From a virus (lineage: Duplodnaviria > Caudoviricetes), in the IMG/VR virus record IMGVR_UViG_3300035507_000332: DNA of 64,000 bases. One strand, written 5' to 3'. The notes beneath the pieces were generated by a model. That model saw nothing but the letters and a program-made list of their open reading frames with translations, ran no database searches and was not told where the DNA came from. Within the stretch, counting starts at the first letter, position 1; every line of letters begins with the position of its first letter. Positions 3,970 to 37,892 of the stretch are shown here, piece by piece. The translations under genes and the position numbers were made by a program.

Positions 3970-4541
3970 TTCTTCAACTGATTGACGATGGCAAAGCCAC
4001 GAGGCAACAAATCGAGGATGCGCTTAAAGCGATTGAGGCAAAGATAGACGACATACAGAGATTCTACTTTGCCTTTGAGGACAGCGGATTTAACTTCAGC
4101 GATGGCGGAGTCTACTACCGATTCCACGACTACATCAGAATTCCCAACGATATTGACGAGATAAAATTCTCACTCAACAAAAAGAATTTCGAGCGGAATT
4201 TTGACGTATTCTTTTCATTCTTCGGCAAGACAAACCAAGATATCGAAGCTACGTACGACAACGAAAGTTGCCTAAACGGCGTCATCTTAGAGTTGTTTTT
4301 GAAAGCGTGGGATGAGAAGATGTACCCACTAGAGCCACTGTACCTACCAACGTCAGAGACTCTTCATATTATCAGAGAAGGAGAAGATTCTTTCTTTCAG
4401 CTTGAAAAAGCAAAGTTGACTCCACCTAATGGGGTTATTTCCTTACCAGAAGGACCGAACGCATGTGTAGGCGAGAGAATGACTTACATCTATTGGCGTG
4501 ATACCGTCTGGAAGGTAGAAACAAATAGAATATTTTTATGA
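3966..4541 (+). CDS. hypothetical protein
   Basis: 191 aa, 4-nt overlaps both sides. Confidence 0.75.
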   Translation: MILQLIDDGKATRQQIEDALKAIEAKIDDIQRFYFAFEDSGFNFSDGGVYYRFHDYIRIPNDIDEIKFSLNKKNFERNFDVFFSFFGKTNQDIEATYDNESCLNGVILELFLKAWDEKMYPLEPLYLPTSETLHIIREGEDSFFQLEKAKLTPPNGVISLPEGPNACVGERMTYIYWRDTVWKVETNRIFL

Positions 4542-5257
4542 ATGGGCGTTTTAAAAAGATGTGTCCAAAAGTCTACGTAGTCTCATTGCCTACAGACATC
4601 AGGAGACGTGCGCACACAGAGGACATACTCAAACCTTACGCTATTGAGCCAGAATTTATCGACGGCGTAATTGTCGAAGATATAGGCGAGGATATGTTCA
4701 AGCACCCAGGGTTCTACAAAGATATTGGGGATGCTACAGAGGAAGAAGTTCTCACGTACAGAAAGAGAATTTGTGGGGTGACTCAGGCGCATTTGCACGC
4801 ACTAAAGAAAGGCATAGAAAATGCGGAAGAAGAGAACTCTCTGATATTCCTCATTCTGGAAGACGACATCGAACTTTGCGAAGACTTCGACGAAGCAGTT
4901 ATCAACCTTTACGACAAGCTCGAATCCGACAACAGAAATTGGATAGCGTGCAACCTACAGGTGCGCATGTATAGCTCAATGGCAGGCAAAAACAAGAAAG
5001 ACCAGATAGCCAACGATACCTACTACAAAGGCACGACATGGGGACACCAAGGCTACATGTACAATTGCCGTGAATTGCCTAGGCTCAAGGACTTTTACCA
5101 CGTCCTCAAGTACGGATGCCAAGAAGAAATTGACAACTTCTACACACGCTTAGTCAATCACTTCAACCTTTATGGGTCTATTATTCCGATTGTTGCCCAG
5201 AAGGACGACTTCGTATCCAACATTTCCACTAGAAACGACTACATCAACAACATATGA
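4538..5257 (+). CDS. glycosyltransferase family 25
   Basis: VYVVSLP..RR, FIDGV, GVTQAH, LILEDD, GHQGY motifs. Confidence 0.85.
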   Translation: MNGRFKKMCPKVYVVSLPTDIRRRAHTEDILKPYAIEPEFIDGVIVEDIGEDMFKHPGFYKDIGDATEEEVLTYRKRICGVTQAHLHALKKGIENAEEENSLIFLILEDDIELCEDFDEAVINLYDKLESDNRNWIACNLQVRMYSSMAGKNKKDQIANDTYYKGTTWGHQGYMYNCRELPRLKDFYHVLKYGCQEEIDNFYTRLVNHFNLYGSIIPIVAQKDDFVSNISTRNDYINNI

Positions 5258-5568
5258 CCCCTATCTACGGCAAACCAGATTTTGAGAAAATTGTTGAACG
5301 AGGCAAGGGAATTATTGTCGTCAAATTTTGGCGAGAGAATTGTCCGCCATGCCAGAGAGTATCACAGCTCCTTCACGATTGGGAAGACCTGGAAGAAGTA
5401 CCTGCGACCTACTATTCAGTGAATCCAAAGGACAGAGGCAATTGGAACATCTGTAGGAAGTACAAGGTACAATTCTTCCCCACTGTATTGACATTCAAAG
5501 ACGGAGTCCTTATAAATACATGCGAAGGCTCATTACCAAGTAAAAAAATGGTTTTGGGGCTGGATTAA
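5254..5568 (+). CDS. thioredoxin
   Basis: VVKFWRENCPPC; FPTVLTFKDG cis-Pro motif. Confidence 0.9.
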   Translation: MTPIYGKPDFEKIVERGKGIIVVKFWRENCPPCQRVSQLLHDWEDLEEVPATYYSVNPKDRGNWNICRKYKVQFFPTVLTFKDGVLINTCEGSLPSKKMVLGLD

Positions 5569-5592
5569 GTGTAATTATAAATTCATTATCCG

Positions 5593-6105
5593 ATGGCAAC
5601 CAAGCACATAACATTACTCGAAGCATTAGTGGCGATAAAGCGGCTTCACTCAATGAGATTTGAATTGCGCAAGAAGCTAGAGCGACTAAACGTCCACGCA
5701 CCTAAAAATTCTTCTTTAGTATCTTCCATATTCTCCAAGTACATCTTGGTGAGCAGAGCGATGCCCGATCTTCAAGGAAAGATTTGGGACGCCAACCACG
5801 GAACGAACACAATCCTAGCTCACATCAAGCACGCAAAGGAAGAGATCGACTTTTACAACAAGTTGATGGAAGAAAATTCTCAAGAAGAACAATCAACGGT
5901 TAATGGCAAACAGGGTAAGTTACAGTGCTTGCTAACCTTCTCTGAAATTGAAGTGGTTATAGAAAATTTGCAAGCTAAAGTTTTCGAGTGGGAAAACAAG
6001 TTAGCTCAGCACAATTTTGAGCAAACCATTGAAGTAGAAGAAGAGTATCTGAGTCTCATTGGTCCGTACAGCCAAGCGACAAAGCAATACTCAACGGATA
6101 ACTAA
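5593..6105 (+). CDS. coiled-coil hypothetical protein
   Basis: 170 aa helical ORF behind GTGTAA motif. Confidence 0.75.
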   Translation: MATKHITLLEALVAIKRLHSMRFELRKKLERLNVHAPKNSSLVSSIFSKYILVSRAMPDLQGKIWDANHGTNTILAHIKHAKEEIDFYNKLMEENSQEEQSTVNGKQGKLQCLLTFSEIEVVIENLQAKVFEWENKLAQHNFEQTIEVEEEYLSLIGPYSQATKQYSTDN

Positions 6106-6196
6106 GGCGGAGACATCCCCCATTTTTAGAAAAACAACTACAAAGAAAAAGAATTTTCACTAACAACTTTTATAGGGGAAATTTCTTGTAACGCCT

Positions 6197-6238
6197 TGAG
6201 CCTGTGGTTTAGCTAACTGCAGGCTCATTTTTTTATTT
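6197..6238 (+). terminator. intrinsic terminator
   Basis: TGAGCCTGTGGTT...AACTGCAGGCTCA + T-tract. Confidence 0.75.
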
Positions 6239-6328
6239 CACAAAGATTAAAATTTTCCTTGCCTAAAGTGTAAATTTATGTTGCAGACTTCAACAGTCTG
6301 CCAACAACAAACACACGAGGAAAAGAAA

Positions 6329-7150: not shown

Positions 7151-7187
7151 GAAGAAATAGAACTACCTAACCAAGAAGGAGGTTCAA

Positions 7188-7763
7188 ATGTTCCCGACAG
7201 GAGGATTCAACCCGATGCAGATGGCAGGCTTGAGCGGATTACCAAATCCGTTTGCAAGCGGAGGGTACAGCAACGAACATCAGCTTCAGCACCACAACAA
7301 GGAAATGATGAAGTGGTTCGAGAAGTGCCTAGTAACAATAGTGGAAGAAGGCGAAGGCGAATTCCTGGAAGCTCTGAACAAAAAGATAGGGCAGATGGAA
7401 GAAGCCGAGCAATCATGGATGAGACGACACGCTAGAGAAGTCTACGAAGTCGATTACCCAGACCACCACAAGAAGCACCACAAAAAGAAGCACTACTACG
7501 AGGAGGAAGACGAGGACGAAGACATCAGTCAATTTTGGCTCGAGCTAGAAGAGCTAGAAACAAAGTCCAAGAAAATTCCAGGGTTCAACATTCGTGCGCA
7601 CCTAAAGAATGAGTACAGCAATTTGAACGACGAGGAGTTACGAGTAGTCACGCACCTTTTTGACAAGGGTGGGTTACATAAGCTTGCGAAGGAAGCAGGT
7701 ATGTCCACTAGAGAATTCTTAGAGATTATCTCCGAGGCAGCAGAAAAAATCGACTGCGATTAG
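7188..7763 (+). CDS. hypothetical protein with His/Lys and acidic tracts
   Basis: AAGGAGG SD; HHKKHHKKKHYYEEEDEDED. Confidence 0.8.
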   Translation: MFPTGGFNPMQMAGLSGLPNPFASGGYSNEHQLQHHNKEMMKWFEKCLVTIVEEGEGEFLEALNKKIGQMEEAEQSWMRRHAREVYEVDYPDHHKKHHKKKHYYEEEDEDEDISQFWLELEELETKSKKIPGFNIRAHLKNEYSNLNDEELRVVTHLFDKGGLHKLAKEAGMSTREFLEIISEAAEKIDCD

Positions 7764-7767
7764 TCAC

Positions 7768-7813
7768 AAAAAAAAGGAGTCATCTTTGCGGATGACTCCT
7801 TTAATTATTTTTT
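7768..7813. terminator. bidirectional terminator
   Basis: AAAGGAGTCATC-tttgcg-GATGACTCCTTT between convergent genes. Confidence 0.85.
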
Positions 7814-7824
7814 AGAATTGATGA

Positions 7825-9081: not shown

Positions 9082-9192
9082 GGCTTAGAAAAAAAGCAGG
9101 ATTGATTTGTGAGAAATTCCTCTTTCATGGTTTACACAAAATCCGCTATGATGTGTAATCCTCATATAGGAAACACACCTCAGACACCGCTC

Positions 9193-10158
9193 ATGTCAGA
9201 CAAAAAGATTGAAAATATCGGGATTGTCATCCCTGCTTACAAACGCCCCATTGAGACACGCCAAGCTATTTTTTCAGCACTTCACCAAAGCTATAAGTGC
9301 AAGGTATTTGTCTCAGTAAAGGGATACTCAGAAGACAGTTACAAGCGATTCTTCCTAGAAGAATTTGCCAAGGAAATTGAAGCAGGAGACTTAGTTCTTA
9401 GCTTCTCGACTAACAAAGGGCAAATTTCCAACACGCTCGACTGTATCCGAGATGCAGACATCAGCGATATTGACTACTTCGTAAAGATGGACAACGACGA
9501 CGTCTATCTTAAACAGTACGTGGCAAACGTTGTAGACTTCTTACAGTACGAAGCCGAAAGCGAATTCTACCCCGATGTAGTTGGTACGTTCTCTTGCAAT
9601 ATGGTTTACCGCAATGCACGTGGTGACTTTTTTGCACCTAAGCGAGAAGGCTACCTCCTTGGACCGACAATTTGTTTCTCAAAGAAGGTGGTAGACATTC
9701 TCTTCAAGGTTGAGCAAGGCGACTACAGCGACCTTGAAGAAATTGGTCTTGACATCACGCAGTTCAACAACATTTCCGACGACCGATTCGTCTTTGAACT
9801 TGGCAAGAAGCTTGGCGGAGCAGTTGACTATGGCAAAACCGACTACTTGTATATCAACGAAATCACACCTTCCTGTTGGCGAGGCTCTGACTATATTTCA
9901 GCAGCGAACAAATCCGCAACGCTCGAAGGTAGTTTTGGCTTAGAAGAAGAACAAGTATTGCACGTCTTCCACCCAGGTTGGAGCGGATACCTCATCATCC
10001 AAGGAGAACGATTCACAAGAGAAAACGGAGACCCAGGAGACGTCCTAGAATTCGACAGCGAAGGTATTTGGGTTAAGTGGGACAAATGGGGCAAGGAATA
10101 CTTCCGTCTCAACCCCAACAAAAACTACTATATCTACGAAGGCGAGTCTAAGTTGTGA
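9193..10158 (+). CDS. glycosyltransferase family 2 with C-terminal W-rich beta module
   Basis: IVIPAYKRP; KMDNDD (DxD); start moved to ATG 9193. Confidence 0.8.
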   Translation: MSDKKIENIGIVIPAYKRPIETRQAIFSALHQSYKCKVFVSVKGYSEDSYKRFFLEEFAKEIEAGDLVLSFSTNKGQISNTLDCIRDADISDIDYFVKMDNDDVYLKQYVANVVDFLQYEAESEFYPDVVGTFSCNMVYRNARGDFFAPKREGYLLGPTICFSKKVVDILFKVEQGDYSDLEEIGLDITQFNNISDDRFVFELGKKLGGAVDYGKTDYLYINEITPSCWRGSDYISAANKSATLEGSFGLEEEQVLHVFHPGWSGYLIIQGERFTRENGDPGDVLEFDSEGIWVKWDKWGKEYFRLNPNKNYYIYEGESKL

Positions 10159-11132
10159 ACAGAGACTTTAGATTTGCGCTCCTCCTAACCACCTACAAGC
10201 GGTTATGCGAGGGGCAACTTCAGATATTCAAGATGCTCAACCAGAGCTACGAGAATTTCCATTTATTCGTAGCTGTGAAGGGGTGCTCTGAATACGTATT
10301 CAACAAGAGTTGGCTTCCCTACTTTCAAAAGCACATCGACGAAGGGAAGCTAACTCTGCGTCGATTCCCTAACAAAAACCAAATGAGCAATTTGGTCGAT
10401 TGCGTGCGAGGACTAAACTTGCGAGGGTACGACTACTTTTGCAAGATCGACGACGACGATTTCTACGACGTCAACTACCTCAAGCGATGCAACGAAGCAG
10501 CCAACGAGAGCAACGGCAAAAACTTATTTTGGATGGACAGGTCGTGCCGTCTAGTTGTCAACAGGCACGACGATTTTTACCGCTTCAAAAAGAACACCCA
10601 GTGGAATTCTTACTGGGGGCCAACGCTTTGCGCAACAAGGTTTGTATGGCAGGAATACATGAACTTGGAAAATGGAGAGGAAGACTTGCCCACATACATT
10701 GGCAAGAACAACCTACCAGCGATGCCAAGGCATAAAGACTGCGGATTCCACGAAGACAAACTGCTCTACTCAATGATGAGAGCTTTTGGTGGGGTCTACA
10801 ATATTCGCAAGAATGGTATTCCCTACGTAATGTTCAACGAGAGCAATGCGTCAGTTACACGAGGGGGGTTTGTCAACGGTTGGTTCCAGACAGAAAACTT
10901 TGACGTAACTAAGTCCGAGCTAGCCGAAGAACAAATTTTTTATTGCAAGACCCCCGATTTTGAAGACGACGTACGAGTATTTATGGGGTACGCCTGGGGA
11001 GTAGCAAGCGGAGCAACAGGCAAGGTAATTAGTCTCACAGACACCGAGCTAGAAATCGACTGGGATAAATTCCTACCACAAAAATACATCCGACAAGAAG
11101 ACGGTTCTTGGTGGTCTGACGACCCGATTTAA
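10155..11132 (+). CDS. glycosyltransferase family 2, paralog of preceding gene
   Basis: LLTTYKR; KIDDDD; shared VKG.SE, NK.Q.SN..DC.R, GPT.C. Confidence 0.8.
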   Translation: MNRDFRFALLLTTYKRLCEGQLQIFKMLNQSYENFHLFVAVKGCSEYVFNKSWLPYFQKHIDEGKLTLRRFPNKNQMSNLVDCVRGLNLRGYDYFCKIDDDDFYDVNYLKRCNEAANESNGKNLFWMDRSCRLVVNRHDDFYRFKKNTQWNSYWGPTLCATRFVWQEYMNLENGEEDLPTYIGKNNLPAMPRHKDCGFHEDKLLYSMMRAFGGVYNIRKNGIPYVMFNESNASVTRGGFVNGWFQTENFDVTKSELAEEQIFYCKTPDFEDDVRVFMGYAWGVASGATGKVISLTDTELEIDWDKFLPQKYIRQEDGSWWSDDPI

Positions 11133-11391: not shown

Positions 11392-14300
11392 ATGTCGGAG
11401 TTTTCTTCAGTATATTATGTTGTACACCCATCCAAAGGGCTGATTCCGTTTTACGGAGATTTTGCGTCCAAGAAAGATATTCTTGACGCAATTGGTCAAC
11501 TTGGAGGGACGTTTAAGCCACTTGTCGTATCATCGTTGCCTGATGCAGGGGAGGATGGGTTCATTTATTTTGTACCTAATGGGGTAGATGCAGGGGACAA
11601 CCAACATAACGAGTACTTATATTTCAATGGGCGATGGGAGCTTATTGGGTCAACAGGAATCGACCTAACAGGCTTTGCCACTGAAGAAGCTCTGAACACG
11701 CATACGAGCAACTCATCCATTCACGTCACAGCAACCGACAGGAATAGATGGGACTCGAAACAAGACGCAGGGGACTACGCTACAAACACCGATCTAACGA
11801 CAGGGCTTGCTTCAAAGCAGGACGCAGGAGACTACGCCACCAACACGGCACTAACGACTGGGTTAGCTAAGAAGCAAGACGTCGGCGATTACGCCACAAA
11901 TACTGCTCTAAAAGAAGGTCTAGCCACCAAACAAGACGTCGGAGACTACGCCACAAATTCCGATCTCACCAGTGGGCTTGCGACGAAGGTAAACACAGCG
12001 GAATTTTCCACTCACACAAACAACGGAGATATCCACGTTACCCTCGACGACAAGAGCGTATGGAATTCCGCACCAACCAACTTAAAGCTACACACTGGAG
12101 ATTCTGACATCCACGTTACAGCGAAGGACAAAGCAAAGTGGAATGCGAAACAAGACGCAGGTGACTACGCCACCAACACCGCTCTAACCGAAGGATTAGC
12201 CACAAAGCAAGACGTCGGCGATTACGCCACGAATACGGCACTTACCGAAGGACTCGCCACGAAACAAGCTGTAGGAGACTACGCAACGAATACAGCTTTA
12301 ACAGAAGGGCTAGCCACCAAGCAAGACGTTGGCGATTATGCAACCAACGAAGCTTTGGCGACAGGTCTAGCCACGAAGCAAGATGCAGGTGATTACGCCA
12401 CAACCGACGAACTGACTACCCACACAGGCAACACGGTTATTCACGTCACACAAGAAGACCGAGACCGATGGGACGCAGGTTCAAATGAAGGAGTCGAAGC
12501 CTCAATTGCAGAAGTCTCAGCCAACCTAACCACACATACAGGTAATTCCGACATCCATGTCACAGCAGAAGACAAGGAAAAGTGGAATTCTTTGCCCACC
12601 CAGTTAGATGTAACTAACTCTGTTAATGACGCCAAAGCTTCTCTTCAGTCCGACTTGCTCACCCACACAGGGAACGCAGCGATTCACGTCACCACAGAAG
12701 ACAAAGCAATTTGGAACGCCAAGCAAGATGCAGGTGACTACGCCACGAACGACGCATTGACGGCAGGACTGGCTACCAAACAGGATGCAGGGAGCTATGC
12801 TACAACCGATGAATTGGCAAGCCATACAAGCGACACAGAAATCCACGTCACAGCAGAAGACAAAGCCCGATGGGACGCAGGCTCAAACGAAGGCGTAGAA
12901 GCGTCTATAAGCGAGGTCAAGGACTTTCTTGGCACTCACGTAGGCGACACGTCTATTCACGTCACCACGGACGAGAAAGACGCCTGGAACGCCAAGCAGG
13001 GAGCAATCTCAACCGTCAACGTATCCAAGAGCGATGACGCTTCATCAATTGCCGATGGAGCATTGAACGTCAACTTACCTACGGATTGGTTCACTCAAGC
13101 TGAGATCGACACAAGCGACTTCGTCACCTTAAGCGGAGACCAAACTATTACAGGGAACAAATTCCTCAAGGGTGGCGTTGCCGCTTATTCCGCTGTAATG
13201 TTCGTCAATTCCACGAGTTCAGGAGACGAAACGATTGGCAGTATTTATCCAAGCTCAACGTCATACCCATTTGTATTCCTCAAGCCTGCATACTTCAGTG
13301 GCACGCAAAACGTATTCAAGAACAACGTCATTGTCGGTGGGCAAGTAACAGCAGGAGCTGCTTCTATAGGAAACCTTGCCACAACAGGGTACGCCAAAAT
13401 TGGTACAGACTTGACAGTAGATGGCCACGCTACAATCAATGGGTTGGTCACTACCATCAATAGCCAAGACCTCTATCTTGACGGACATATTCACTTGTCA
13501 AGTTCTGGCGGTAAATTTATTGATGGACACTCTCTTTTCCGAGGCAGGGCTGAATTTTCAGGCTCGGTAGATATTGTCTCCGACACCAAGGTAAACGTCG
13601 ATAGTAGCTCTATCCTTACGGTTGCCAAGATGCAAACCGACACGGCGAAATTTACCTCAGATGAAATTTCCAACCAGGTAACCACCAAGAAGTACGTCGA
13701 TAGCAAGATCGACTATGAAGTAAACACTCCTAGGCAATTTGTTATTTCCAGAGCAGAGTCTTGGAGTTCAGTCGCAGGTTGGTATTCTCAAGGAGAAGGC
13801 TTTTTGAGTATTCCTGGAATCGACACAATCGACTGCTCCTTATACTCTTGCTCATCATGGGACGAAGCGTCGTTCTCCTTTACAACTCAGGGGAATTCCT
13901 CAATGTTGAGTTTGACGATTCCTGTGGGTACGAATTCTTCAGGGAGCACGAACAACGGCACGGTAACTTCAGGCAATTATGTAACGCTTGACACCGACCA
14001 GAATATTTCAGGGAACAAATTCTTTGATGGGCATGTTACTTTCCAAGGACCGTTCGTGGTTTTTGATGTAGACGACATTTCTTTCTCAGGGAGCGTATCA
14101 GTTCGAGACCTTGAAGTTAGAGGCTCTTCTAACTTCTACAGCCAAGCGAATTTTTCTGGAGATGTCAATATCCAAAGCACTGGAAGCTTAAAGAATTCTG
14201 GGAGTACATACCTCAATGGTTACAACAAAGTAAACGGTTGGACATACCTTAATAGCTACAACAGCGTAAACGGTTGGACTGACTTTTATTCAGCAGCTTC

Positions 14301-15687
14301 TTTTCATAACGTAGCTCTTTTTGGTAGCGATGGGCATATTCAAGTAGATTCTAGGTGGGTGGGAATTTCCTCTCCTAACGTCGATTTCTACACGGTCAGT
14401 GACGGTCACGCTCAAAAAATTACCCTTGGAAACAACAGTATCCTAACCGTTGCCCAGGTACAGACAGACTCATCTAAGTTCTCTAGCGACGAACTTAGAA
14501 ACCAAGTCGTGCCTAAATGGTACGTCGATCAGTTGATTGACGGACACTTTGATGGGCATACTTCTACATCTGGGCGGTATGTAGATCTAACATCCAACCA
14601 AGAAATTGATGGTTACAAAACATTTAACAACATCACTTACTTCAAGTCCGACATCAGTGTAGATGGGCATATTTGGCTACAAGACATGTTTTGGGCTAAT
14701 AACGATGCTTGGTTCTATAGCAATGTTTATTTTCAAGGCGTCCCAACTTTCTATAGCGATGTAAATCTTACAACTACGTCAAAGCTTACCTCTAATGGTG
14801 TAGCTAAGTTTAATGGAGTTGCTACTTTTAGTTCTTCAGCTTCTTTCAAAGGTGTAACTTCGTTCGCTGATTCCGTCTATTTCAATGGAGGGAGTAGCGG
14901 AGCAAAGACAATGTTCAATACGTCGGTAACCTTTAGCGGAACAAGTCTTTACATCGGAACAGACGAAACGAGCATTGGTGGGAGCGTAAAATTTATCGCT
15001 GGAGATGTTGCGTTTAACAATCAAAGCGTAGGATTCAACACGCCTGTTACGTTCGACAAGCTTCATAGTACGACTTTCAACGGTAGCACTTCTTTCAACA
15101 AAGACGTCTCTTTCAATGGAGATCTTTCCTTTGGTGGTGAAACAACAACCTTTGCGTCGAGCCTAAGTAAGTTTACAGGAAGCCTAGCGAGCTTCCAGAG
15201 CGATGCGCTATTTGCTTCACAGGTAGACATGAACAGCACGGTAAACAACCGAGGCAAGGTGAATGTTTATGGAGGTATGTACATTGGCAGAGAAGAAGAC
15301 TGGAGTGCACTTGACATTGCTCAAGAGCAAAAACCAGAAGTAACTCAATTCCGGCCTTCTTTAAGAAGCGTCAATGGACAACTCATTGAATTCCCAAGGC
15401 TTGGTTGCGCAGATGGGACTCAAGAAAGTTGGTTCGTGGACAACACGACAAGAGTAACTACTGTCTTCCCATGGTGGCCGACTTCTGGTTATGAATCTGA
15501 CAGCTTCTCTGACGAGAATTTGGAATATTCCAACTATCAGAATAACCTTTACCTTTGCAATGCAGGTATGGTCAAGTACCTAGTAAAATCAGCTTTGGAA
15601 CTCATGGGGTACGACGTTTCAGTACTTAAGCCCGAATACTTCACTAAGGCAGTAGACGAATACTACAACAAATACGGAGAATACTAA
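11392..15687 (+). CDS. long tail fibre / receptor-binding protein
   Basis: 1431 aa; KQDAGDYATN.AL..GLA and HT.N..IHVT repeats; DQTITGNKF-type repeats; F-x5 beta-helix-like C-terminal region. Confidence 0.85.
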   Translation: MSEFSSVYYVVHPSKGLIPFYGDFASKKDILDAIGQLGGTFKPLVVSSLPDAGEDGFIYFVPNGVDAGDNQHNEYLYFNGRWELIGSTGIDLTGFATEEALNTHTSNSSIHVTATDRNRWDSKQDAGDYATNTDLTTGLASKQDAGDYATNTALTTGLAKKQDVGDYATNTALKEGLATKQDVGDYATNSDLTSGLATKVNTAEFSTHTNNGDIHVTLDDKSVWNSAPTNLKLHTGDSDIHVTAKDKAKWNAKQDAGDYATNTALTEGLATKQDVGDYATNTALTEGLATKQAVGDYATNTALTEGLATKQDVGDYATNEALATGLATKQDAGDYATTDELTTHTGNTVIHVTQEDRDRWDAGSNEGVEASIAEVSANLTTHTGNSDIHVTAEDKEKWNSLPTQLDVTNSVNDAKASLQSDLLTHTGNAAIHVTTEDKAIWNAKQDAGDYATNDALTAGLATKQDAGSYATTDELASHTSDTEIHVTAEDKARWDAGSNEGVEASISEVKDFLGTHVGDTSIHVTTDEKDAWNAKQGAISTVNVSKSDDASSIADGALNVNLPTDWFTQAEIDTSDFVTLSGDQTITGNKFLKGGVAAYSAVMFVNSTSSGDETIGSIYPSSTSYPFVFLKPAYFSGTQNVFKNNVIVGGQVTAGAASIGNLATTGYAKIGTDLTVDGHATINGLVTTINSQDLYLDGHIHLSSSGGKFIDGHSLFRGRAEFSGSVDIVSDTKVNVDSSSILTVAKMQTDTAKFTSDEISNQVTTKKYVDSKIDYEVNTPRQFVISRAESWSSVAGWYSQGEGFLSIPGIDTIDCSLYSCSSWDEASFSFTTQGNSSMLSLTIPVGTNSSGSTNNGTVTSGNYVTLDTDQNISGNKFFDGHVTFQGPFVVFDVDDISFSGSVSVRDLEVRGSSNFYSQANFSGDVNIQSTGSLKNSGSTYLNGYNKVNGWTYLNSYNSVNGWTDFYSAASFHNVALFGSDGHIQVDSRWVGISSPNVDFYTVSDGHAQKITLGNNSILTVAQVQTDSSKFSSDELRNQVVPKWYVDQLIDGHFDGHTSTSGRYVDLTSNQEIDGYKTFNNITYFKSDISVDGHIWLQDMFWANNDAWFYSNVYFQGVPTFYSDVNLTTTSKLTSNGVAKFNGVATFSSSASFKGVTSFADSVYFNGGSSGAKTMFNTSVTFSGTSLYIGTDETSIGGSVKFIAGDVAFNNQSVGFNTPVTFDKLHSTTFNGSTSFNKDVSFNGDLSFGGETTTFASSLSKFTGSLASFQSDALFASQVDMNSTVNNRGKVNVYGGMYIGREEDWSALDIAQEQKPEVTQFRPSLRSVNGQLIEFPRLGCADGTQESWFVDNTTRVTTVFPWWPTSGYESDSFSDENLEYSNYQNNLYLCNAGMVKYLVKSALELMGYDVSVLKPEYFTKAVDEYYNKYGEY

Positions 15688-15692: not shown

Positions 15693-16541
15693 ATGACGCA
15701 GCACCCTACATTTTGTTGGTTTAGTTTTCGCCGAGACGCTAGCCACCTGTTATACAGCGTGGCTAGCATACGGCGGTTATATCCAGAGTCGCAGAAATTT
15801 GTTTTTGACGACGGAAGTTATCCACTACCCAAGCGAGCCAAGAGAGTTTTGACGAACTGGGGAGTCAACGTCATCACGACAACATTTCCCCGAAAAGGGA
15901 ATTTGCGAGGATGGACATGTGCCTACAAGATAGCCGAATGCTACACATGGCTAGCGAACATCACAGGGAGTGAGATCGTCGTCAAGGTAGACTCAGACAC
16001 CATATGGTTAAAGAAAGGGTGGCTAGAGAAATTTGCCGAAAGCGGATGTGTACTAGGCGGAATGCGGAGCAAATGCCGACGAGGAGTATGTGGCGTCTCC
16101 TACGCACTCAAGCGAGAAGGAATCGACCTTCTCATGGAGAGCTACAAAAACGAGCTAGAATCCCCATATTCCACCGAGGAAGACTTTGAAGTATGCAACC
16201 GCATATCCAAAGCCAAAGGAGGGAATGGAGACGACATCATCTACAAAGCACCCTACAGCCTATGGGGGATACATCCAGAATGCCCCGATGCAGTAGGCGT
16301 GGCGGTAGACTGGGGACAAAACTGCGCCCAGTTCATAGCCGACACAATGGAAGTAGTTGTTTTTGCCTACGACCCACCCAACCCACCAGGGTGTAAAACA
16401 GATGAAAAAGGCCAACCAGTAGCAACCAAAGCAGGAACACCGCTTTGGCTACGAGCAAGACTTTTAAGAGCCTCTTCAATGAGAAACATCTTAAAGCGTG
16501 TAATTCAAAATCAGGACAAAAGATGGCAGACGAACGATTAA
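15693..16541 (+). CDS. GT-A fold glycosyltransferase
   Basis: SVASIRRLYP, VFDDG, VVKVDSD (DxD), GVSYA, EED. Confidence 0.65.
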   Translation: MTQHPTFCWFSFRRDASHLLYSVASIRRLYPESQKFVFDDGSYPLPKRAKRVLTNWGVNVITTTFPRKGNLRGWTCAYKIAECYTWLANITGSEIVVKVDSDTIWLKKGWLEKFAESGCVLGGMRSKCRRGVCGVSYALKREGIDLLMESYKNELESPYSTEEDFEVCNRISKAKGGNGDDIIYKAPYSLWGIHPECPDAVGVAVDWGQNCAQFIADTMEVVVFAYDPPNPPGCKTDEKGQPVATKAGTPLWLRARLLRASSMRNILKRVIQNQDKRWQTND

Positions 16542-17560: not shown

Positions 17561-17778
17561 ATACTATAGAATTAGAACTCGGTGAAAAAATTCTTCGAGA
17601 ACATAGCTCTGAGCGCACTCGGTGTACTGTTTACACTCGGGTCATGGGCTACCATCGCCCTGTTGAGACGTTTAATAAGGGCAAGCAAGGAGAATTCGAA
17701 GACCGCACACACTTCATTGAGCCTACCCACGACAATGAGCCGAGCAATCTGCATCATCCCAGCGAAGAAAAACTCTGA
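17557..17778 (+). CDS. nrdD: stand-alone C-terminal glycyl-radical domain of class III ribonucleotide reductase
   Basis: RTRCTVYTRVMGYHRPVETFNKGKQGEFEDR (RVxGY radical motif). Confidence 0.85.
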   Translation: MNTIELELGEKILREHSSERTRCTVYTRVMGYHRPVETFNKGKQGEFEDRTHFIEPTHDNEPSNLHHPSEEKL

Positions 17779-18376
17779 GAGACTACCTCAGAAGAATTTC
17801 TTACCTCTAGGGGGCGTTCCATTGTGGATACACACAGTGGAACATGCCCTCAAGGAAGACTTTGAATTTGTAGTCAGTACCGACAGCCAAGAAATCATCG
17901 ACGAATGCAAGAAAAAAGGTTGGCGATACTTTGAAGAAACGGTTGACGACTCAGACATGAGCAACTGCGTACGCCAAGTCCTCACCGAGTACGAAGACTA
18001 CGACTACTACATCATTCTACAGCCGACCTCACCCTTCCGAGAATACGGCATCTTGAAGTACGTCAAGACGGTACTAGATACCAACCCCGAACTAGACATC
18101 GTATACACAGCCCAGAAGGTAAAGCCTATTGGATTGTGCATTCACAGTGGCAAGGAAAAGTTCATCATCAACAAGCGAGAGCAAGATTCCAAGAGTTTCT
18201 TGTTCCAGTACGACGGCAACACCTTGGCAGGGCGAGTAGACGTATTCAAGCGAGAACAGCAAATCTTTTTCAAGGGTATGAAGTCGAAATTCGTCATCGA
18301 CGCCTACCCATTTTCCATCCAAATTGACACCCTAGAAGAGTATTTATTTTTGTCGAAAATCTATTTCACTCTATAG
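17735..18376 (+). CDS. neuA: acylneuraminate/nonulosonate cytidylyltransferase (NeuA-like)
   Basis: IIPAKKNSERLPQKN, VSTDS, LQPTSPFR, IQIDT; start moved to ATG 17735. Confidence 0.88.
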   Translation: MSRAICIIPAKKNSERLPQKNFLPLGGVPLWIHTVEHALKEDFEFVVSTDSQEIIDECKKKGWRYFEETVDDSDMSNCVRQVLTEYEDYDYYIILQPTSPFREYGILKYVKTVLDTNPELDIVYTAQKVKPIGLCIHSGKEKFIINKREQDSKSFLFQYDGNTLAGRVDVFKREQQIFFKGMKSKFVIDAYPFSIQIDTLEEYLFLSKIYFTL

Positions 18377-29937: not shown

Positions 29938-30741
29938 ATGAAGATAGCACTAGTTCAACTAGCTTTAGGAGAATTCTACTACCAGAGTTGGGACAGCTTC
30001 CACTCACTCACAAAGCAGAATTTCTTGCCAAACCACGATGTAACCATTCATCTGTTCACAGATGCCGAAAAAGTAGCGGTGAGGAAAGGGGTTGAGCTAC
30101 ACAAAATATCTTCCAGAAAATGGCCAGAGCCAACGTTTCTGAAGTACAGCTGTGTTTTACAGGCAATCAAGGATAATGAATACGATTACGTCTACTACCT
30201 AGATTCCGACAACGTTTGTGAAGCACCTGTACCAGAAGCGTTGGCGAAGGACGACTTCTCAATCATCTCACCAACCTCCTGGGGAGCTAAGTATGCAGGA
30301 GCATTTTTTGGAGGCAAAACCAAGTTTGTGACAAAGTTTTGCAAGTTAGTCCAAAAAGAAGTAGATAAAATTTTCCGAGGTGAGAAGTTCCCCGACCGAG
30401 AAAATGACGAGGAACTTATGTGTAAATGTGAAGTGTTGGGGTGTAACGTTACCACGTACCCACTCAACGACGTCTTCTGTTGGTACATCCATGGGAACGA
30501 CCATAGTAATTTTTGGATATCACAAGCCGAAAAAGACTTCGTAAAGTCCCACGGATACGACATGTATGTAGACTTTGGATTCCTTAAGGGTGAAGCTCTT
30601 ATTAACGAGAATCTGAAGCTTATTTGCGTGCTGGACTACAAGTCCTATTCAACGTACGGACGACTTGAGCAGATTGCGCCGAAAAGATATCGGATTACGT
30701 GGCAGGACACAGATCTTGGAATTAGCTACTTGGATGTATGA
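29938..30741 (+). CDS. GT6-like glycosyltransferase 1
   Basis: FLP..DV..HLFTD, WPEPT, YYLDSD, YAGAFFGG, NDEE. Confidence 0.75.
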   Translation: MKIALVQLALGEFYYQSWDSFHSLTKQNFLPNHDVTIHLFTDAEKVAVRKGVELHKISSRKWPEPTFLKYSCVLQAIKDNEYDYVYYLDSDNVCEAPVPEALAKDDFSIISPTSWGAKYAGAFFGGKTKFVTKFCKLVQKEVDKIFRGEKFPDRENDEELMCKCEVLGCNVTTYPLNDVFCWYIHGNDHSNFWISQAEKDFVKSHGYDMYVDFGFLKGEALINENLKLICVLDYKSYSTYGRLEQIAPKRYRITWQDTDLGISYLDV

Positions 30742-31538
30742 AAATAGCCGTCGTGCAACTAGGCGTCAATAGGATGTACTATGATTTGTGCGACTCCTAT
30801 TATTCCACGAATAAAGAGAATTTCTTCCCTGACGAAGAGGTCGATTTTTACATTTTCACCAACGTAAAGCCGACAGTTGCCAGAAGAGGGCAATATGTTT
30901 TTGTCAAAGATTACGAAGGTGTATGGCCAGAGCCGACCTTTAGGAAGTTTGAGTGTATCCTAGAGGCCATAGAGCGTAAGGAATACGACCGAGTTTTCTA
31001 CTTAGATGCTGACAATTGTTTTTTGAGAAGAGCTTTGCTCCGAAAGGAATTCCTAGAGAACGATTTTTCTATTATCTCTCCTACTAGGTGGGGAGTAAAA
31101 TACGGAGGGATGTTCTGGGGAGGCAAAACCAAGTACGTAAAACAGTTTTGTGAGTATGTAAAAAGACGATGCGACAGAATCTTAGAAGCCAAAGAACTCC
31201 CTCTTAGAAATAACGACGAAGAATATTTCTATTGGCTAGACAGCGCAGGATTCAAAGTGACGAAATATTCTTACGACGAAGTTTTTGACGAAGGAGGCAA
31301 GAAATGGCTCTACCAGATTCCGAAGGATTTTCAGCAAGCCCACAGTCATAGAATATACATCGACTATGGCTTTGTGAGAGGATACGCAGCAATCAACTAT
31401 TCAATGAAGCTGATATCAGTCCACGAGACGCATTCTCTTTCTATTTACGGCCGTCTTGAAAATTTAGCAGAAGGGGTATATTCAATTACATGGCAGAATC
31501 CACAATTTCCTAACAGCTTATTAGACTTGAGGAAATGA
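30738..31538 (+). CDS. GT6-like glycosyltransferase 2
   Basis: Tandem paralog; YLDAD, YGGMFWGG, NDEE. Confidence 0.75.
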   Translation: MKIAVVQLGVNRMYYDLCDSYYSTNKENFFPDEEVDFYIFTNVKPTVARRGQYVFVKDYEGVWPEPTFRKFECILEAIERKEYDRVFYLDADNCFLRRALLRKEFLENDFSIISPTRWGVKYGGMFWGGKTKYVKQFCEYVKRRCDRILEAKELPLRNNDEEYFYWLDSAGFKVTKYSYDEVFDEGGKKWLYQIPKDFQQAHSHRIYIDYGFVRGYAAINYSMKLISVHETHSLSIYGRLENLAEGVYSITWQNPQFPNSLLDLRK

Positions 31539-32365
31539 AAATTGCGCTTATACGAGTAGCCACTGGAGAAAAGTATTGGAGCTTTTACGACCACTTCTAC
31601 GAAATCACGAGGGAAAACTTCTTCCCTGAACATGAGTTGCACACTCATGTATTCACAGATTGCGACAGAGTTACGCCAAGGAAGAATCAGATAGTGCATA
31701 AAGTATCATCTGATATCCGATGGCCAGAGCCATGCTTCAGGCGTTACGAATGGACGCTAGAGGCAATGGAGAGCGACGACTACGACTACGTTTACATGAT
31801 GGACGTTGACAATTTTGTAGACGTTCGACCACCAGAAGCTCTGATACAAGAACCATTCTGCATTGTTAGTCCCACAGAATGGCGTGTATTGTATGGCGGA
31901 GGATTCTGGGGAGGATTAACGGAGTTTGTCAGGAGATTTTGCCTGAAGATGAAAGCCGACATCGACGAAATCTTCAACTTCAACAGGCTACCAAGCGATG
32001 CCAACGACGAAGAGTTTCTGTATCATTGCGAGGAGCTAGGATGCAAAGTAAAGAAATTCCATTGGTCAGTTATACACAGAGACCTAAAATGGTCGCCTTG
32101 CTCTCAGAAATGGATGATACAAGTTGGCAAAGACATGCTAGTCGATAGAAAGTTCCAACATAAGGAAGATTGCGACTTTGGATTCTTCAAAGGGCCAGTT
32201 CTGATAAACGAACGAATGAGGGTTGTTTTATGCTTTGAAAAGCGAAGCTTCAACCACTACGGAAGGTACGAAGAAATCGAGCCAGGCAAGCTCAAAATCA
32301 CTTGGCAGGAAGAGCAGTATGGGGTAAGCTACCTAGACCTAAATGCAACAAAAGATAATAATTAG
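31535..32365 (+). CDS. GT6-like glycosyltransferase 3
   Basis: VATGEKY, VFTD, WPEP, MDVD, YGGGFWGG, NDEE. Confidence 0.8.
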   Translation: MKIALIRVATGEKYWSFYDHFYEITRENFFPEHELHTHVFTDCDRVTPRKNQIVHKVSSDIRWPEPCFRRYEWTLEAMESDDYDYVYMMDVDNFVDVRPPEALIQEPFCIVSPTEWRVLYGGGFWGGLTEFVRRFCLKMKADIDEIFNFNRLPSDANDEEFLYHCEELGCKVKKFHWSVIHRDLKWSPCSQKWMIQVGKDMLVDRKFQHKEDCDFGFFKGPVLINERMRVVLCFEKRSFNHYGRYEEIEPGKLKITWQEEQYGVSYLDLNATKDNN

Positions 32366-35625: not shown

Positions 35626-35888
35626 ATAAAACCGTGACTTTGATAGCGACCTGCCGTTCCTGCGGCAGGTCAGAAAGGGTAAATGTAACAGAGAAAGATT
35701 GGTTGTTCGTCAAAAAACGTGGACAATCGCCTCTAAATGCCTTTCCTTACCTCTCTGAGGACGTTCGCTATAGATTAGCCCATGGGCTATGCCTAACGTG
35801 TTCTAGGGGCAATTCTGAGCCAAGAAATGAAAACCGTGATAATATGTCCTCCGAACAAGAATCCACTAGCAAGCACCCGACTAACTAA
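35622..35888 (+). CDS. small zinc-finger protein
   Basis: CRSCG...AFPYLS...GLCLTC. Confidence 0.65.
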   Translation: MNKTVTLIATCRSCGRSERVNVTEKDWLFVKKRGQSPLNAFPYLSEDVRYRLAHGLCLTCSRGNSEPRNENRDNMSSEQESTSKHPTN

Positions 35889-36462
35889 GTTGGGGTATGA
35901 GTGGGAGACTTTTTGGAGCAATGACATTGAGTTATCGGACACTCGCCAGTCTGAATGCCTAACCTTTATGCGTGGGCGAAGTCTAGAAAACCTAGAGCAA
36001 CGCCCACATGTAAGGCATCTACGTAACAATTGGCAGAAGATTCTCGTCAATTATGCCGATTCTGACGAGAAAGTGCTATTTCTTGAGGAGGACGCATGTC
36101 CCCAGATTACAGCAGAAGACTTAGAAGAAGCAGTTGATAGGGAATTATCCAGCTACAAGGTCGATATCCTGCGCCTGTTCCAGACGTTGGTAAACAGCAA
36201 TGGAGGAAGGCATCTGTTCAGCAAGAATTCTGAATTTGAGTGGTTTAGAGATTCAAGTTTGTGCCAGTATACCGACTACCACTATGGGTCACATGCCTAT
36301 TTTATACCAAAAAGGTCAAGAATTGCCATGGCACGTATCTTCAGTTCGTACCGACTACCAACAGACACAGCAGTAGAAATGGCCTGTGCCAAGGGAGACT
36401 TGGTAATGAGAGTTTCAAGAGACAATCTTTTCACGCAAGGAGTACATGGAAGCACGCTCTGA
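35827..36462 (+). CDS. GT25-like glycosyltransferase
   Basis: HLRNNW, LFLEEDA, DILRL, YGSHAYFI, PTD. Confidence 0.65.
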   Translation: MKTVIICPPNKNPLASTRLTKLGYEWETFWSNDIELSDTRQSECLTFMRGRSLENLEQRPHVRHLRNNWQKILVNYADSDEKVLFLEEDACPQITAEDLEEAVDRELSSYKVDILRLFQTLVNSNGGRHLFSKNSEFEWFRDSSLCQYTDYHYGSHAYFIPKRSRIAMARIFSSYRLPTDTAVEMACAKGDLVMRVSRDNLFTQGVHGSTL

Positions 36463-37132
36463 TAAATCAACGTACTATTGCAAGCACTGCGACTGGAGTG
36501 GCAATGTAGAATTCTACAACGACGGAAACTTCTACTCTGTAGGAAGGGAAAGTGGAAAATTCTATGTCACTAACGGTTGTATTCTCACATTAGCGTGGGA
36601 TAGTTGGCCAGCAGAACAGGTCTACTTGAAAAATTCTAAGTGGATAGGCTCAAGGATGGTACTAACCAAGTTCGACGGACAAACAGACGTCGTTAATCTT
36701 AACCAAAATACTCAAGTTTCCAGTATCAAAGTTGTAGTCTCCGACTGCAATCAGTACAAAGAAGGATATTTCAACGCTGGGCTACCAAACTTCGACTGTA
36801 GAGACCGATTGCCATTTGCCGACAACTCACTTAGCGAACTAGTAATGGAGGAGGGTATTTTCAAAATACTGACGCCTAGCCAGATGTACCTATTTTGTGA
36901 GGATGCACTTAGAATGTTACAGCAGGATGGCAAGCTAGAGCTTCAATTCTCCTCTATCGAAGAACTAACCGCCAAGAAGTCCAACCAAGATGCTGTAAAA
37001 GCTCTAAAGGACTACATGCTAGCAGGGAATCACAAGAATTTTCCTAGCAAAACAGGGTACGTACAGATGCTATCAATTTTAGGCTTTACTGTAAAAGAGA
37101 GCGTAGGAAAAATCACAGCGGTAAAGCAATAA
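36446..37132 (+). CDS. W-rich beta module fused to a degenerate class I methyltransferase-like domain
   Basis: LTLAWDSWP; DCRDRLPFADNS...RMLQQDGKL. Confidence 0.55.
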   Translation: MEARSDKSTYYCKHCDWSGNVEFYNDGNFYSVGRESGKFYVTNGCILTLAWDSWPAEQVYLKNSKWIGSRMVLTKFDGQTDVVNLNQNTQVSSIKVVVSDCNQYKEGYFNAGLPNFDCRDRLPFADNSLSELVMEEGIFKILTPSQMYLFCEDALRMLQQDGKLELQFSSIEELTAKKSNQDAVKALKDYMLAGNHKNFPSKTGYVQMLSILGFTVKESVGKITAVKQ

Positions 37133-37133
37133 A

Positions 37134-37892
37134 ATGGACGAACAAAAACCTATCATAGCTCTAGTATTCAACAATCTGGACCAAGACTACTCTAAGACAA
37201 TCGACAACAACGTCGATTTGGTGGCACGCTTCAATATGTTCCCCACTGGGGGCAAGTACGGCACGAAAACCGATATGGTATTTGCCTACATGCCAGACAT
37301 CGTGGATGAATTATTTGAAGCCGATCTTCCAGGAGTCGATTACTACATGGTAGGAGAGGTGTACAAAGACTCTACAGACGCCTGCAAGAAAAGATTCCCT
37401 AATATCAAAAACCACAAGATGCCTATCGCCAACTGGAGAAGCTTGGCAAAGTCATCAATTCGTGCGTGGGCATTGAATTTTTTATTGTATAAGTACCAAG
37501 ACTATGATATAGGAGTCCTCGGTGACTTACCAAGCAATGCCAGTGAACAAGAGCAGTGGTTTGTAGACAACCTAAAGTCTAGTGGCTTAGTTGGTCAATG
37601 GACGAGAGCTTATGGAGGAGCGCAAGTATTCTCTAAAGTGAACGACCCAGACCGCCAACCACCTCTCTACACGTCGGTCTATTGTGAGACTCCCTATTGG
37701 ACTGACGACATCATTGTCATTGGTTACCGTACCTATCGAAACCAAGCTCCACAGGAAACCGCCATGCTTGTTGAGTATGTACCCAACGAGAAGCTCGTTA
37801 TCCAGTGGGACGGTTATGGAGTCCAAGAATTCAGGATGCACGAAGATGGTCAACGCTTCATCTCTGGACGAGAATTCTACTTCGACTGGTAA
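37134..37892 (+). CDS. divergent GT29-like protein with C-terminal W-rich beta module
   Basis: IALVFN...IDNNVDLVARFN...GTKTD; LVIQWDGYG. Confidence 0.6.
   Translation: MDEQKPIIALVFNNLDQDYSKTIDNNVDLVARFNMFPTGGKYGTKTDMVFAYMPDIVDELFEADLPGVDYYMVGEVYKDSTDACKKRFPNIKNHKMPIANWRSLAKSSIRAWALNFLLYKYQDYDIGVLGDLPSNASEQEQWFVDNLKSSGLVGQWTRAYGGAQVFSKVNDPDRQPPLYTSVYCETPYWTDDIIVIGYRTYRNQAPQETAMLVEYVPNEKLVIQWDGYGVQEFRMHEDGQRFISGREFYFDW

Follow-up and report, generated by a model that had tools for sequence, protein, structure and literature searches.

A tailed phage with a probable Akkermansiaceae host encodes about a dozen glycosyltransferases, including GT6-like enzymes and a compact GT29-fold family

The main known forms of phage-encoded glycosylation are O-antigen conversion, DNA glucosylation and the work of the one to four GT2-type genes that mycobacteriophages carry. 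Here we analyse a 64-kb stretch of DNA, referred to below as the window, which is a portion of the genome of a large, uncultured tailed phage (Caudoviricetes; IMG/VR record IMGVR_UViG_3300035507_000332) and which carries, between positions 4538 and 37892, about a dozen glycosyltransferase (GT) genes together with a gene for a cytidine monophosphate (CMP)-sugar synthetase. Our preferred reading, to which we assign a probability of roughly 0.45, is that these genes constitute a genuine glycan-building toolkit, conserved in the phage lineage, whose product would be a branched, acid-capped oligosaccharide on a virion protein.

Among the closest described systems are those that glycosylate the virions of mycobacteriophages of the Che8, Corndog and Myrna type, cited in PMC11256854. 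The mycobacteriophage enzymes are GT-A proteins encoded near structural genes and thought or shown to glycosylate capsid or tail proteins in the cytoplasm, which likens them to the locus described here; they differ in being one to four enzymes of GT2 type, whereas this locus, known from its genes, holds about twelve GTs (GT6-like, GT29-like, GT25 and GT2) accompanied by a CMP-sugar synthetase and a docking-like module. Chlorovirus PBCV-1, too, encodes many GTs of its own (A64R and others) and builds its capsid glycan independently of host export, but chloroviruses are eukaryotic viruses with unrelated sequences, and in the phage we found one sugar-nucleotide synthetase and no sugar-synthesis pathway. 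Finally, in phage DNA hypermodification several GT-A-fold enzymes act sequentially and can build di- or oligosaccharides on 5-hydroxymethylcytosine (5hmC) (bioRxiv 10.1101/2023.12.21.572611); that chemistry, unlike the present case, requires enzymes forming 5hmC or 5-hydroxymethyluracil (5hmU), which were not found in the relatives of this phage, and involves different GT families.

Several of the individual families have precedents as well. GT6 is already phage-borne in cyanophage annotations (Prochlorococcus phage P-SSM2), and in BoGT6a of Bacteroides ovatus, which is metal-independent, NxN replaces the DxD motif (PMC3516806). The GT6-like proteins of the window have the same fold and N-terminal sequence core as bacterial and cyanophage GT6 and likewise no membrane anchor; unlike BoGT6a, they keep DxD as the vertebrate enzymes do, add a C-terminal module with a WDxWG core and fall below the Pfam and NCBIfam cut-offs. 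Bacterial GT29 sialyltransferase-like proteins lacking a transmembrane segment and a conserved disulfide have been described (PMC5811610), and plant GT29 members are putative transferases of Kdo (3-deoxy-D-manno-octulosonate) from CMP-Kdo (PMC11288761). With these the phage GT29-like proteins share sialyl motif L and elements resembling motifs S and VS, and their donor, too, may be CMP-Kdo; they differ in measuring ~170-177 residues against the ~270 positions of the Pfam domain and in forming a family of their own that is very often fused to a cytidylyltransferase; we refer to them as mini-GT29. GT11 has already been reported from a prophage (PMC12748750). Phage-encoded glycosylation is thus known already; what is new is the unusually rich and specific enzyme content, and the ecological story attached to it is plausible. 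Neither the literature nor tblastn against phages yielded an earlier report of phage GT29-like genes, and our literature search found none of the 170-residue mini-GT29 family with its systematic cytidylyltransferase fusion, of the WDxWG module, or of an Akkermansia-associated fused operon combining GT31, GT11, GT6, GT10 and GT29.

All of the glycan genes listed for 4538-37892 by the first-pass annotation, which had been made from the letters of the window, are present as intact plus-strand open reading frames (ORFs), tightly packed and often overlapping a neighbour by 4 nt (Table 1). Read by eye, the encoded enzymes begin at the catalytic core, with neither the membrane anchor nor the stem that eukaryotic relatives carry at the N-terminus. 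The assignments to families (GT6-like, GT29-like, GT25, GT2 and CMP-sugar synthetase) stand, as does the phage origin of the DNA, with the refinements given below.

The best-supported of these calls concern two sets of paralogs. In the GT6-like triplet, copies b and c are 41-43% identical to copy a. The triplet has no match to Pfam GT6 (PF03414) at E<0.01, and the NCBIfam Gltr_6 hit reaches 37 bits, far under the cut-off of 250 and hence outside the curated family. When searched against the PDB, the triplet profile retrieved the human ABO transferases (3e-9), BoGT6a (2e-8), bovine alpha3GalT (1e-4) and almost nothing else, the identity to solved GT6 structures being merely 14-19%. The AlphaFold (AF2) model of GT6-like a is confident (predicted local distance difference test, pLDDT, 88.4), and the ~50 structures that Foldseek ranks highest for it are GT6 enzymes without exception (E between 4e-13 and 4e-10). 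In a VIA all-against-all structural search BoGT6a (Z 16.7) and human GTB (Z 14.3) scored above generic GT-A folds (~11), and the third-best structural neighbour was the capsid-glycosylating enzyme A64R of PBCV-1 (Z 12.5). Profile and model together support the predicted kinship with GT6. A scan of IMG/VR using the GT6-like alignment found nothing.

The invariant DSD, DAD and DVD of the three GT6-like paralogs fall in the alignment on the DVD that human GTA (D211-V-D213) and GTB share, and the metal-binding motif of the vertebrate GT6 enzymes is therefore retained. A 'YGGxFxGG' segment aligns to GTA 264-272, where the equivalents of GTA 266 and 268 are A/A, G/M and G/G in the three copies. These are the positions by which ABO enzymes choose between the uridine diphosphate (UDP) sugars of N-acetylgalactosamine (GalNAc) and galactose (Gal), and the differences among the paralogs are as expected if the copies use different donor sugars. 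An NDEE (156-159) is invariant in the copies and lies ~5 residues past the end of the hidden Markov model (HMM) alignment at BoGT6a residue 187; we take the catalytic glutamate of GT6 to be E303 of GTA and E192 of BoGT6a. Just upstream of the triplet and of the ThyX gene that precedes it are two adjacent plus-strand paralogs resembling coiled-coil proteins (27514-28416 and 28419-29267; 300 and 282 aa).

The mini-GT29 proteins of the window have no match to Pfam GT29 (PF00777) at E<0.1, and their single sequence match in the PDB is a weak one (E 1.5), covering motif L of pig ST3Gal-I (residues 101-144). An exhaustive HMMER search of 1.84 billion representatives (threshold E<=1e-3) recovered 164 homologs. 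Among the 60 longer homologs, a CTP_transf_3 domain is present in 29, and 10 pass Pfam GT29, with scores such as 66 bits (P0116), 48 (P0100) and 32 (P0079) at a cut-off of 23; since it is relatives and not the window copies that pass, the GT29 link is transitive. The AF2 model of mini-GT29 b (pLDDT 94.9; predicted template modelling score, pTM, 0.91) has as its best Foldseek matches ST6GalNAc2 (5e-6), ST8SiaIII and ST3Gal-I (E up to 5e-4; query-normalised template modelling score 0.51-0.67), followed by the Pasteurella multocida sialyltransferase and then by Campylobacter GT42 enzymes. VIA-align likewise scores the three GT29 structures at Z 12.1, 11.6 and 10.4, with 158-167 of the 177 residues aligned, and gives lower values to GT42 CstI (8.9) and to Maf (8.8), a nonulosonate transferase of flagellin. 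Profile searches and a confident model thus back the proposed GT29 kinship. In both families, then, the first-pass calls found the profile support on which they hinged (PDB 3e-9 for GT6; transitive Pfam matches for GT29), and the best PDB matches of the two AlphaFold models are GT6 and GT29 enzymes only.

Across 58 members of the mini-GT29 family, N8 and R28 are invariant, D24 is kept in 56 and G41 in 57; a motif S-like TT-x3-A...G is conserved, and the motif VS-like H-x4-E retains H151 in 46 and E156 in 48 of the sequences. (This alignment was too divergent for locus scans, for which a 12-sequence subset was used.) Mini-GT29 falls ~100 residues short of the canonical GT29 catalytic domain (~270 positions), and no conserved cysteine pair that could form the L-S disulfide of the opisthokont (animal and fungal) enzymes was seen by eye; on account of the short length and of the missing disulfide we speak of a mini-GT29-like, GT29-fold family rather than of GT29 members. 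Within the tandem triplet a-c, the first 47 residues, which contain motif L, are 85-89% identical in protein and 72-76% identical in DNA, identity drops to 27-40% in the middle third, and in the conserved part roughly every second codon for the same amino acid shows a synonymous difference. Such DNA divergence beneath a conserved protein indicates purifying selection on the N-terminal part. Gene conversion as the source of the near-identical N-termini is ruled out by DNA identity of just 72-76%. The pattern argues that the three copies share one donor and act on different acceptors. Neither the window copy nor P0167, a member from a common cluster, gave a tblastn match against phages.

The cytidylyltransferase gene directly abuts mini-GT29 a. 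The first-pass annotation had called its product NeuA-like; the assignment to the CTP_transf_3 superfamily holds, whereas NeuA specificity does not, given that PseF, KdsB and NeuA models score alike. In NCBIfam, PseF reaches 6e-15 and 55 bits (cut-off 206) and KdsB 5e-13 and 28-49 bits (cut-offs 155-281), so that the equivalog cut-offs for NeuA, KdsB and PseF are not reached; in the PDB the matches are NeuA (2e-6) and KdsB (3e-5). The start codon is probably the ATG at 17735, because 17557-17775 belongs to another gene in a different frame. A membrane-anchored version starting at GTG 17582 with a hydrophobic N-terminus was rejected, the stretch in question being the other frame of that conserved gene. 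Adjacency to the mini-GT29 genes, combined with CTP_transf_3 fusion in 29 of the 60 longer homologs, strongly implies a CMP-activated donor for mini-GT29.

Searches for NeuB and KdsA in two records of related phages, of which CheckV rates one as complete, found neither, nor were they seen among the window ORFs scanned; the host must hence supply the sugar. Every Gram-negative host produces Kdo, which is a sugar of lipopolysaccharide (LPS) and the likeliest donor that a Gram-negative host would supply. A Kdo donor is at least as likely as a nonulosonate. Since the subfamily models score alike, NeuB and KdsA were not found and plant enzymes offer a CMP-Kdo precedent, the label 'sialyltransferase' is not established, and the first-pass reading of the acidic sugar as sialic acid is not supported.

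A ~50-residue segment with a W-D/Q-x-W/Y-G core, which we call the WDxWG module, is common to seven glycan-related proteins of the window: it is C-terminal in GT2a, GT2b, GT6-like a-c and mini-GT29 d, and N-terminal in the methyltransferase-like protein. The module HMM was built from these seven segments, for which its scores of 1e-16 to 1e-25 are accordingly circular; other window ORFs score no better than E 0.02, and independent support comes from multi-domain homologs elsewhere, in which the HMM detects further copies of the module behind GT domains. The module has no Pfam entry. In the GT6-like model, residues ~209-266 fold into a beta domain of their own (pLDDT by block about 80-94), and the VIA and Foldseek matches of that model span residues 1-204 only, none of them reaching the module. 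We propose that the enzymes use it to dock onto one another or onto an acceptor that they have in common.

Table 1. Features of the window and of the related Akkermansia-associated loci
Feature	Position	Strand	Evidence and remarks
GT25-family glycosyltransferase	4538..5257	+	Pfam PF01755 5e-7, 30.2 bits (cut-off 24); phrog_2835 glucosyltransferase
GT2-like a (GT2a), C-terminal WDxWG module	9109..10158	+	Pfam PF00535 5e-6, 26.9 bits (cut-off 23.3)
GT2-like b (GT2b), C-terminal WDxWG module	10155..11132	+	paralog of GT2a, BLASTP 2e-26
Putative GT-A-like DxD protein	15693..16541	+	DD (39-40) and DSD (100-102) invariant in 5 homologs
CMP-ulosonic-acid (Kdo or nonulosonate) cytidylyltransferase	17735..18376	+	Pfam CTP_transf_3 4e-16 in ORF 17582-18376
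Mini-GT29 a, 177 aa	18377..18910	+	His-Glu pair at motif VS position; homolog search, alignment
Mini-GT29 b, 177 aa	18907..19440	+	H-x4-E motif; AF2, Foldseek, VIA
Mini-GT29 c, 176 aa	19442..19972	+	Met in place of motif VS His; alignment
GT6-like a, 267 aa, C-terminal WDxWG module	29938..30741	+	DSD; profile, AF2 model, Foldseek, VIA
GT6-like b, 266 aa, with module	30738..31538	+	DAD; NCBIfam Gltr_6 2e-9; phrog_3317 'glycosyltransferase' 3e-13
GT6-like c, 276 aa, with module	31535..32365	+	DVD; profile
GT25-like protein, family tentative	35827..36462	+	Atlas language-model look-alikes (score 0.96): viral GT25 clusters make up 28/30 named neighbours
N-terminal WDxWG module + methyltransferase-like domain	36446..37132	+	module HMM; homologous L017 domain with weak Methyltransf_11 match
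Mini-GT29 d, 252 aa, C-terminal WDxWG module	37134..37892	+	without motif VS His; homolog search (P0007)
Module in GT2a	9979-10134	+	HMM, residues 290-342
Module in GT2b	10959-11117	+	HMM, residues 269-321
Module in GT6-like a	30595-30738	+	HMM, residues 220-267
Module in GT6-like b	31386-31535	+	HMM
Module in GT6-like c	32201-32347	+	HMM
Module in methyltransferase-like protein	36512-36658	+	HMM, residues 35-83
Module in mini-GT29 d	37691-37858	+	HMM
Long tail fibre, 1431 aa, repeat-rich	11392..15687	+	PHROG tail-protein matches; candidate acceptor
Second tail fibre	22570-24450	-	PHROG tail matches
72-aa ORF with glycyl-radical-type 'TRVMGYHRP' motif	17557-17775	+	overlaps amidase stop and cytidylyltransferase start
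Strong terminator-like hairpin, 10-bp stem, 6 GC pairs, then T run	16964-16990	+	closes GT2a-GT2b-tail fibre-DxD unit
Strong terminator-like hairpin, 14-bp stem, 7 GC pairs, then T run	38290-38323	+	closes 34567-38248 unit
Homing endonuclease	602-1981	-	found in window scan
Fused protein, 764 aa	Akkermansia-associated loci		GT31 + methyltransferase-like + GT11
Fused protein, 791 aa	Akkermansia-associated loci		GT25-like + GT2-like + module + GT6 (Pfam 2e-32)
Fused protein, 1085 aa	Akkermansia-associated loci		GT10 + cytidylyltransferase + mini-GT29 + module

Much of this gene set recurs in other records. The window itself (GC content 45%) has no near relative in INPHARED: megablast with 20 kb of it matched none of the 50,697 phage genomes deposited, the putative major capsid protein (7825-9081, minus strand) had no tblastn match among phages either, and one window protein is additionally recorded on a 141,971-bp contig. 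A syntenic relative is the IMG/VR record G004 (173,439 bp, GC 33%; loci L022-L030), whose capsid-like protein is 63% identical and which retains GT25, GT2a, GT2b, one GT6-like gene, the GT25-like and methyltransferase-like genes, one mini-GT29 and a cytidylyltransferase. Over 43,476 bp the two ends of this record are exact inverted copies of each other, which is probably an artefact of assembly; the real genome would then be closer to 130 kb. At locus L019 of the record G005 (147 kb, GC 37%), a cytidylyltransferase lies beside three tandem mini-GT29 genes (8109-10573), that is, the triplet arrangement recurs, and a GT11-like gene is present in both G004 and G005.

In the Akkermansia-associated loci L003, L011, L013 and L017, BLAST and Pfam reveal the phage's separate genes as giant fusions (Table 1). 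Homologs of the phage GT25-like, GT2-like, GT6-like, methyltransferase-like, cytidylyltransferase and mini-GT29 proteins are all represented and are joined by the WDxWG module, but there the domains are fused and come with GT31, GT11 and GT10 as well as separate GT4 and CgtA-like proteins, whereas in the window the genes are separate and GT6 and GT29 are tripled. L017 is an IMG/VR provirus with the GT operon at 1065-9789 and, ~2.7 kb downstream of it, a 1135-aa homolog of podovirus tail-tubular-B proteins. The flanks of the fused operon vary among Akkermansia metagenome-assembled genomes (MAGs) and other loci, and tblastn of the flanking ORFs of L011 and L013 returned unannotated fragments only.

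Of the two GT25 genes called in the first pass, the one at 4538-5257 passes Pfam and has a 42% identical ortholog in G004, where the overlapping thioredoxin gene (5254-5568, plus strand; 4 nt shared with the GT25 end) is kept alongside it. The other, the GT25-like gene, is a tentative member: it has Atlas look-alikes and shares 37-40% identity with the domain at the N-terminus of the 790-aa fused Akkermansia proteins and 39% with its G004 counterpart, with no Pfam match and negative results for a domain profile against the PDB and for hhalign against the GT25 alignment. Similarly, of the two GT2 calls, GT2a (45% identical to its G004 ortholog) is carried by Pfam and GT2b solely by paralogy to GT2a; with the domain in the middle of the 790-aa fusions GT2b shares 34-35% identity. 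For the DxD protein next to the tail fibre, the motifs are there as predicted but family support is not, neither the single sequence nor a profile matching anything in PDB, Pfam, NCBIfam or PHROGs; in Atlas its neighbours are clusters without names, from viruses and Verrucomicrobiota. The methyltransferase-like call draws on a weak Methyltransf_11 match of the homologous L017 domain, and its motif I is degenerate (SDC where homologs have LGCG).

Several lines of evidence place the host in the Akkermansiaceae, which we regard as probable. The ORF at 17557-17775 is a phage copy of a 70-aa Akkermansiaceae gene located between nrdD and nrdG (L031:1467-1679, minus strand), and it matches 20 of the 201 Akkermansiaceae genomes (72-80% DNA identity over 75-116 bp) but none of 201 Bacteroidales genomes and none of 200 from the class to which the Faecousia assembly G207 belongs. 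The encoded protein resembles a glycyl-radical portion split off from anaerobic ribonucleotide reductase and may be a spare part for it; the gene serves as a host marker: it is because this nrdD-linked gene matches Akkermansiaceae DNA specifically that the host is probably a member of that family. (An RNA gene at 17611-17723 was considered and rejected, there being no Rfam match and the conservation being at the protein level.) In a collection of species-representative genomes, 10 of the 16 mini-GT29 loci are in Akkermansia, Akkermansiaceae or Verrucomicrobiales assemblies, and the Atlas neighbours of two window proteins are Verrucomicrobiota clusters. The main doubts are the GC content, 45% against 51-59% for the Akkermansia loci, and the existence of low-GC relatives. 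Core, H, A/B, Lewis and sialyl epitopes are the products of the families GT31, GT11, GT10, GT6 and GT29. The idea of a mucin-type toolkit raised in the first pass thereby gains indirect support, from the probable host family, whose genus Akkermansia degrades mucin in the gut, and from the fused homologs that add GT31, GT11 and GT10.

Putting these elements together, we propose the following route. The cytidylyltransferase would turn a host-supplied eight- or nine-carbon keto-acid sugar (Kdo or a sialic-acid-like nonulosonate) into its CMP form, and the four mini-GT29, acting as stripped-down sialyltransferase-fold domains, would bind the CMP-sugar through the almost invariant motif L and pass it to different acceptors. 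The three GT6-like enzymes, with their DxD kept, would draw on UDP-sugars to attach residues of Gal or GalNAc type in alpha linkage, using a donor pocket that differs in each paralog, to inner residues presumably put down by the GT2-like pair, the GT25 enzyme and the GT25-like enzyme. Their product would be a branched, acid-capped oligosaccharide assembled in the cytoplasm, with a phage structural protein, either tail fibre or capsid, as its most probable acceptor. Docking of the enzymes would be the task of the WDxWG module, the same module that joins the fused Akkermansia-associated catalytic domains.

The main competitor to a virion acceptor is remodelling of the host surface, with the enzymes acting on lipid-linked or periplasm-bound host precursors (LPS core, O-antigen, capsule or glycoproteins) and thereby serving superinfection exclusion, protection of progeny from adsorption to debris, or mucin or blood-group mimicry by a lysogen. 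We consider it unlikely on balance, but it accounts for a good part of the data. Homologous fused operons reside in Akkermansia genomes and in a prophage, with flanks that vary as those of a conversion cassette would; GT25 is a family of LPS and lipooligosaccharide biosynthesis; Kdo, as the likeliest donor from a Gram-negative host, is an LPS sugar; and some of the GT units follow sigma-70-like promoters and may be expressed early. Akkermansia capsule loci, moreover, adjoin prophages, and insertions have led others to infer that phages target the capsule (PMC13343947). Against this explanation, and in favour of a virion acceptor, searches of two related phage records found neither an initiating phosphoglycosyltransferase nor a Wzx flippase. 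The genes for GT2a, GT2b, the tail fibre and the DxD protein are grouped in what appears to be a common transcription unit, with no strong plus-strand terminator-like hairpin before 16964-16990, and the fused GT operon of L017 lies ~2.7 kb upstream of a tail-tubular-B-like gene. The GT set is kept in phages whose GC contents are 33% and 45% and whose hosts probably differ, which a phage-borne acceptor explains more easily. General Pfam and PHROG scans of the window ORFs revealed no integrase or lysogeny genes. The want of a membrane anchor in the enzymes and the structural resemblance of GT6-like a to capsid-glycosylating A64R also speak for the virion, and virus-built capsid glycans, finally, have precedents.

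A number of observations nevertheless weigh against a virion glycan. The GT6 triplet and the unit of GT25-like, methyltransferase-like and mini-GT29 d genes lie downstream of sigma-70-like promoters (near-consensus, 11/12 matches, at 26324 and 34532) and among replication and nucleotide genes (ThyX, helicase), which suggests early or middle rather than late expression. No obvious Ser/Thr-rich acceptor tail is present on the structural proteins of the window. Two of the four mini-GT29, c and d, are devoid of the presumed catalytic histidine that a and b keep, and the methyltransferase-like protein looks inactive from its sequence. The variable flanks of the fused operon in Akkermansia MAGs are those of a mobile conversion cassette, and temperate-phage GTs of such a kind usually modify the host surface. 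Moreover, G004 and G005 may not mirror the rest of this phage's genome beyond the window.

The missing motif VS histidine in mini-GT29 c and d, together with the loss of motif I in the methyltransferase-like protein and the ~100 residues by which mini-GT29 is shorter than the canonical catalytic domain, could also mean that the paralogs are decayed or non-enzymatic, either duplicated remnants or structural, lectin-like proteins, and that no elaborate glycan is made. This we judge very improbable: purifying selection on motif L is strong in all three tandem mini-GT29 copies, DxD and NDEE are invariant in every GT6-like copy, the 170-aa form is a widespread family in its own right (164 homologs), all ORFs are intact and tightly coupled, and orthologs are retained in G004. 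Least probable of all is that some of the GTs, especially the GT6 triplet directly after ThyX in its replication-gene neighbourhood, glycosylate modified phage bases against restriction, as the known 5hmC-elongating GT-A enzymes might invite one to think, given that neither a ThyA-type hydroxymethylase nor a Tet/JBP dioxygenase was found in related records (the latter a weak result, the Tet control having been silent), that the fusion of the same domains with GT10, GT11 and GT31 in the Akkermansia loci points to glycan elongation, and that we know of no precedent for GT6, GT29 or CMP-sugar enzymes acting on DNA.

Elsewhere in the window an Amidase_3 endolysin, a PIF1-type helicase and ThyX are encoded, and beside the homing endonuclease lies a GAF-domain protein (1985-2692, minus strand; Pfam 7e-6) with a 49% identical ortholog in G004. 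The two tail fibres (11392-15687, plus; 22570-24450, minus) are alike in their N-terminal ~90 residues (phrog_24103) and differ in their distal parts, which suggests two receptor specificities.

What would such a glycan do for the phage? A more elaborate version of our preferred reading, that of a virion toolkit, holds that Akkermansia phages wear a coat of mucin-like or histo-blood-group-like oligosaccharide, with alpha-Gal or alpha-GalNAc branches and Kdo or sialic-acid-like caps made by module-docked cytoplasmic GTs, and that the coat acts as a bait for host mucin-binding and uptake or as a mucus anchor. Taken as a whole we regard this as distinctly unlikely. Among the first-pass proposals, a product resembling mammalian glycans is conjecture, and the ideas of antibody evasion and of bait are speculation.

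In this study we have described a phage lineage with about twelve GTs that come from families making blood-group and sialylated epitopes in animals, have a docking-like module in common and stand in linkage with a CMP-sugar synthetase. The GT6 paralogs that differ at positions 266 and 268 present a testable natural experiment on donor specificity, and the compact 170-residue GT29-fold family might find use where a minimal CMP-ulosonic-acid transferase is wanted. Should virions or lysogens turn out to carry a mucin-like glycan as the product, this would bear on phage persistence in mucus, on recognition between Akkermansia and its phages and on microbial mimicry of host glycans; and should the bait or mucus-anchor reading be true, it would represent a new mode of phage adsorption and a case of phage-mammal mimicry.

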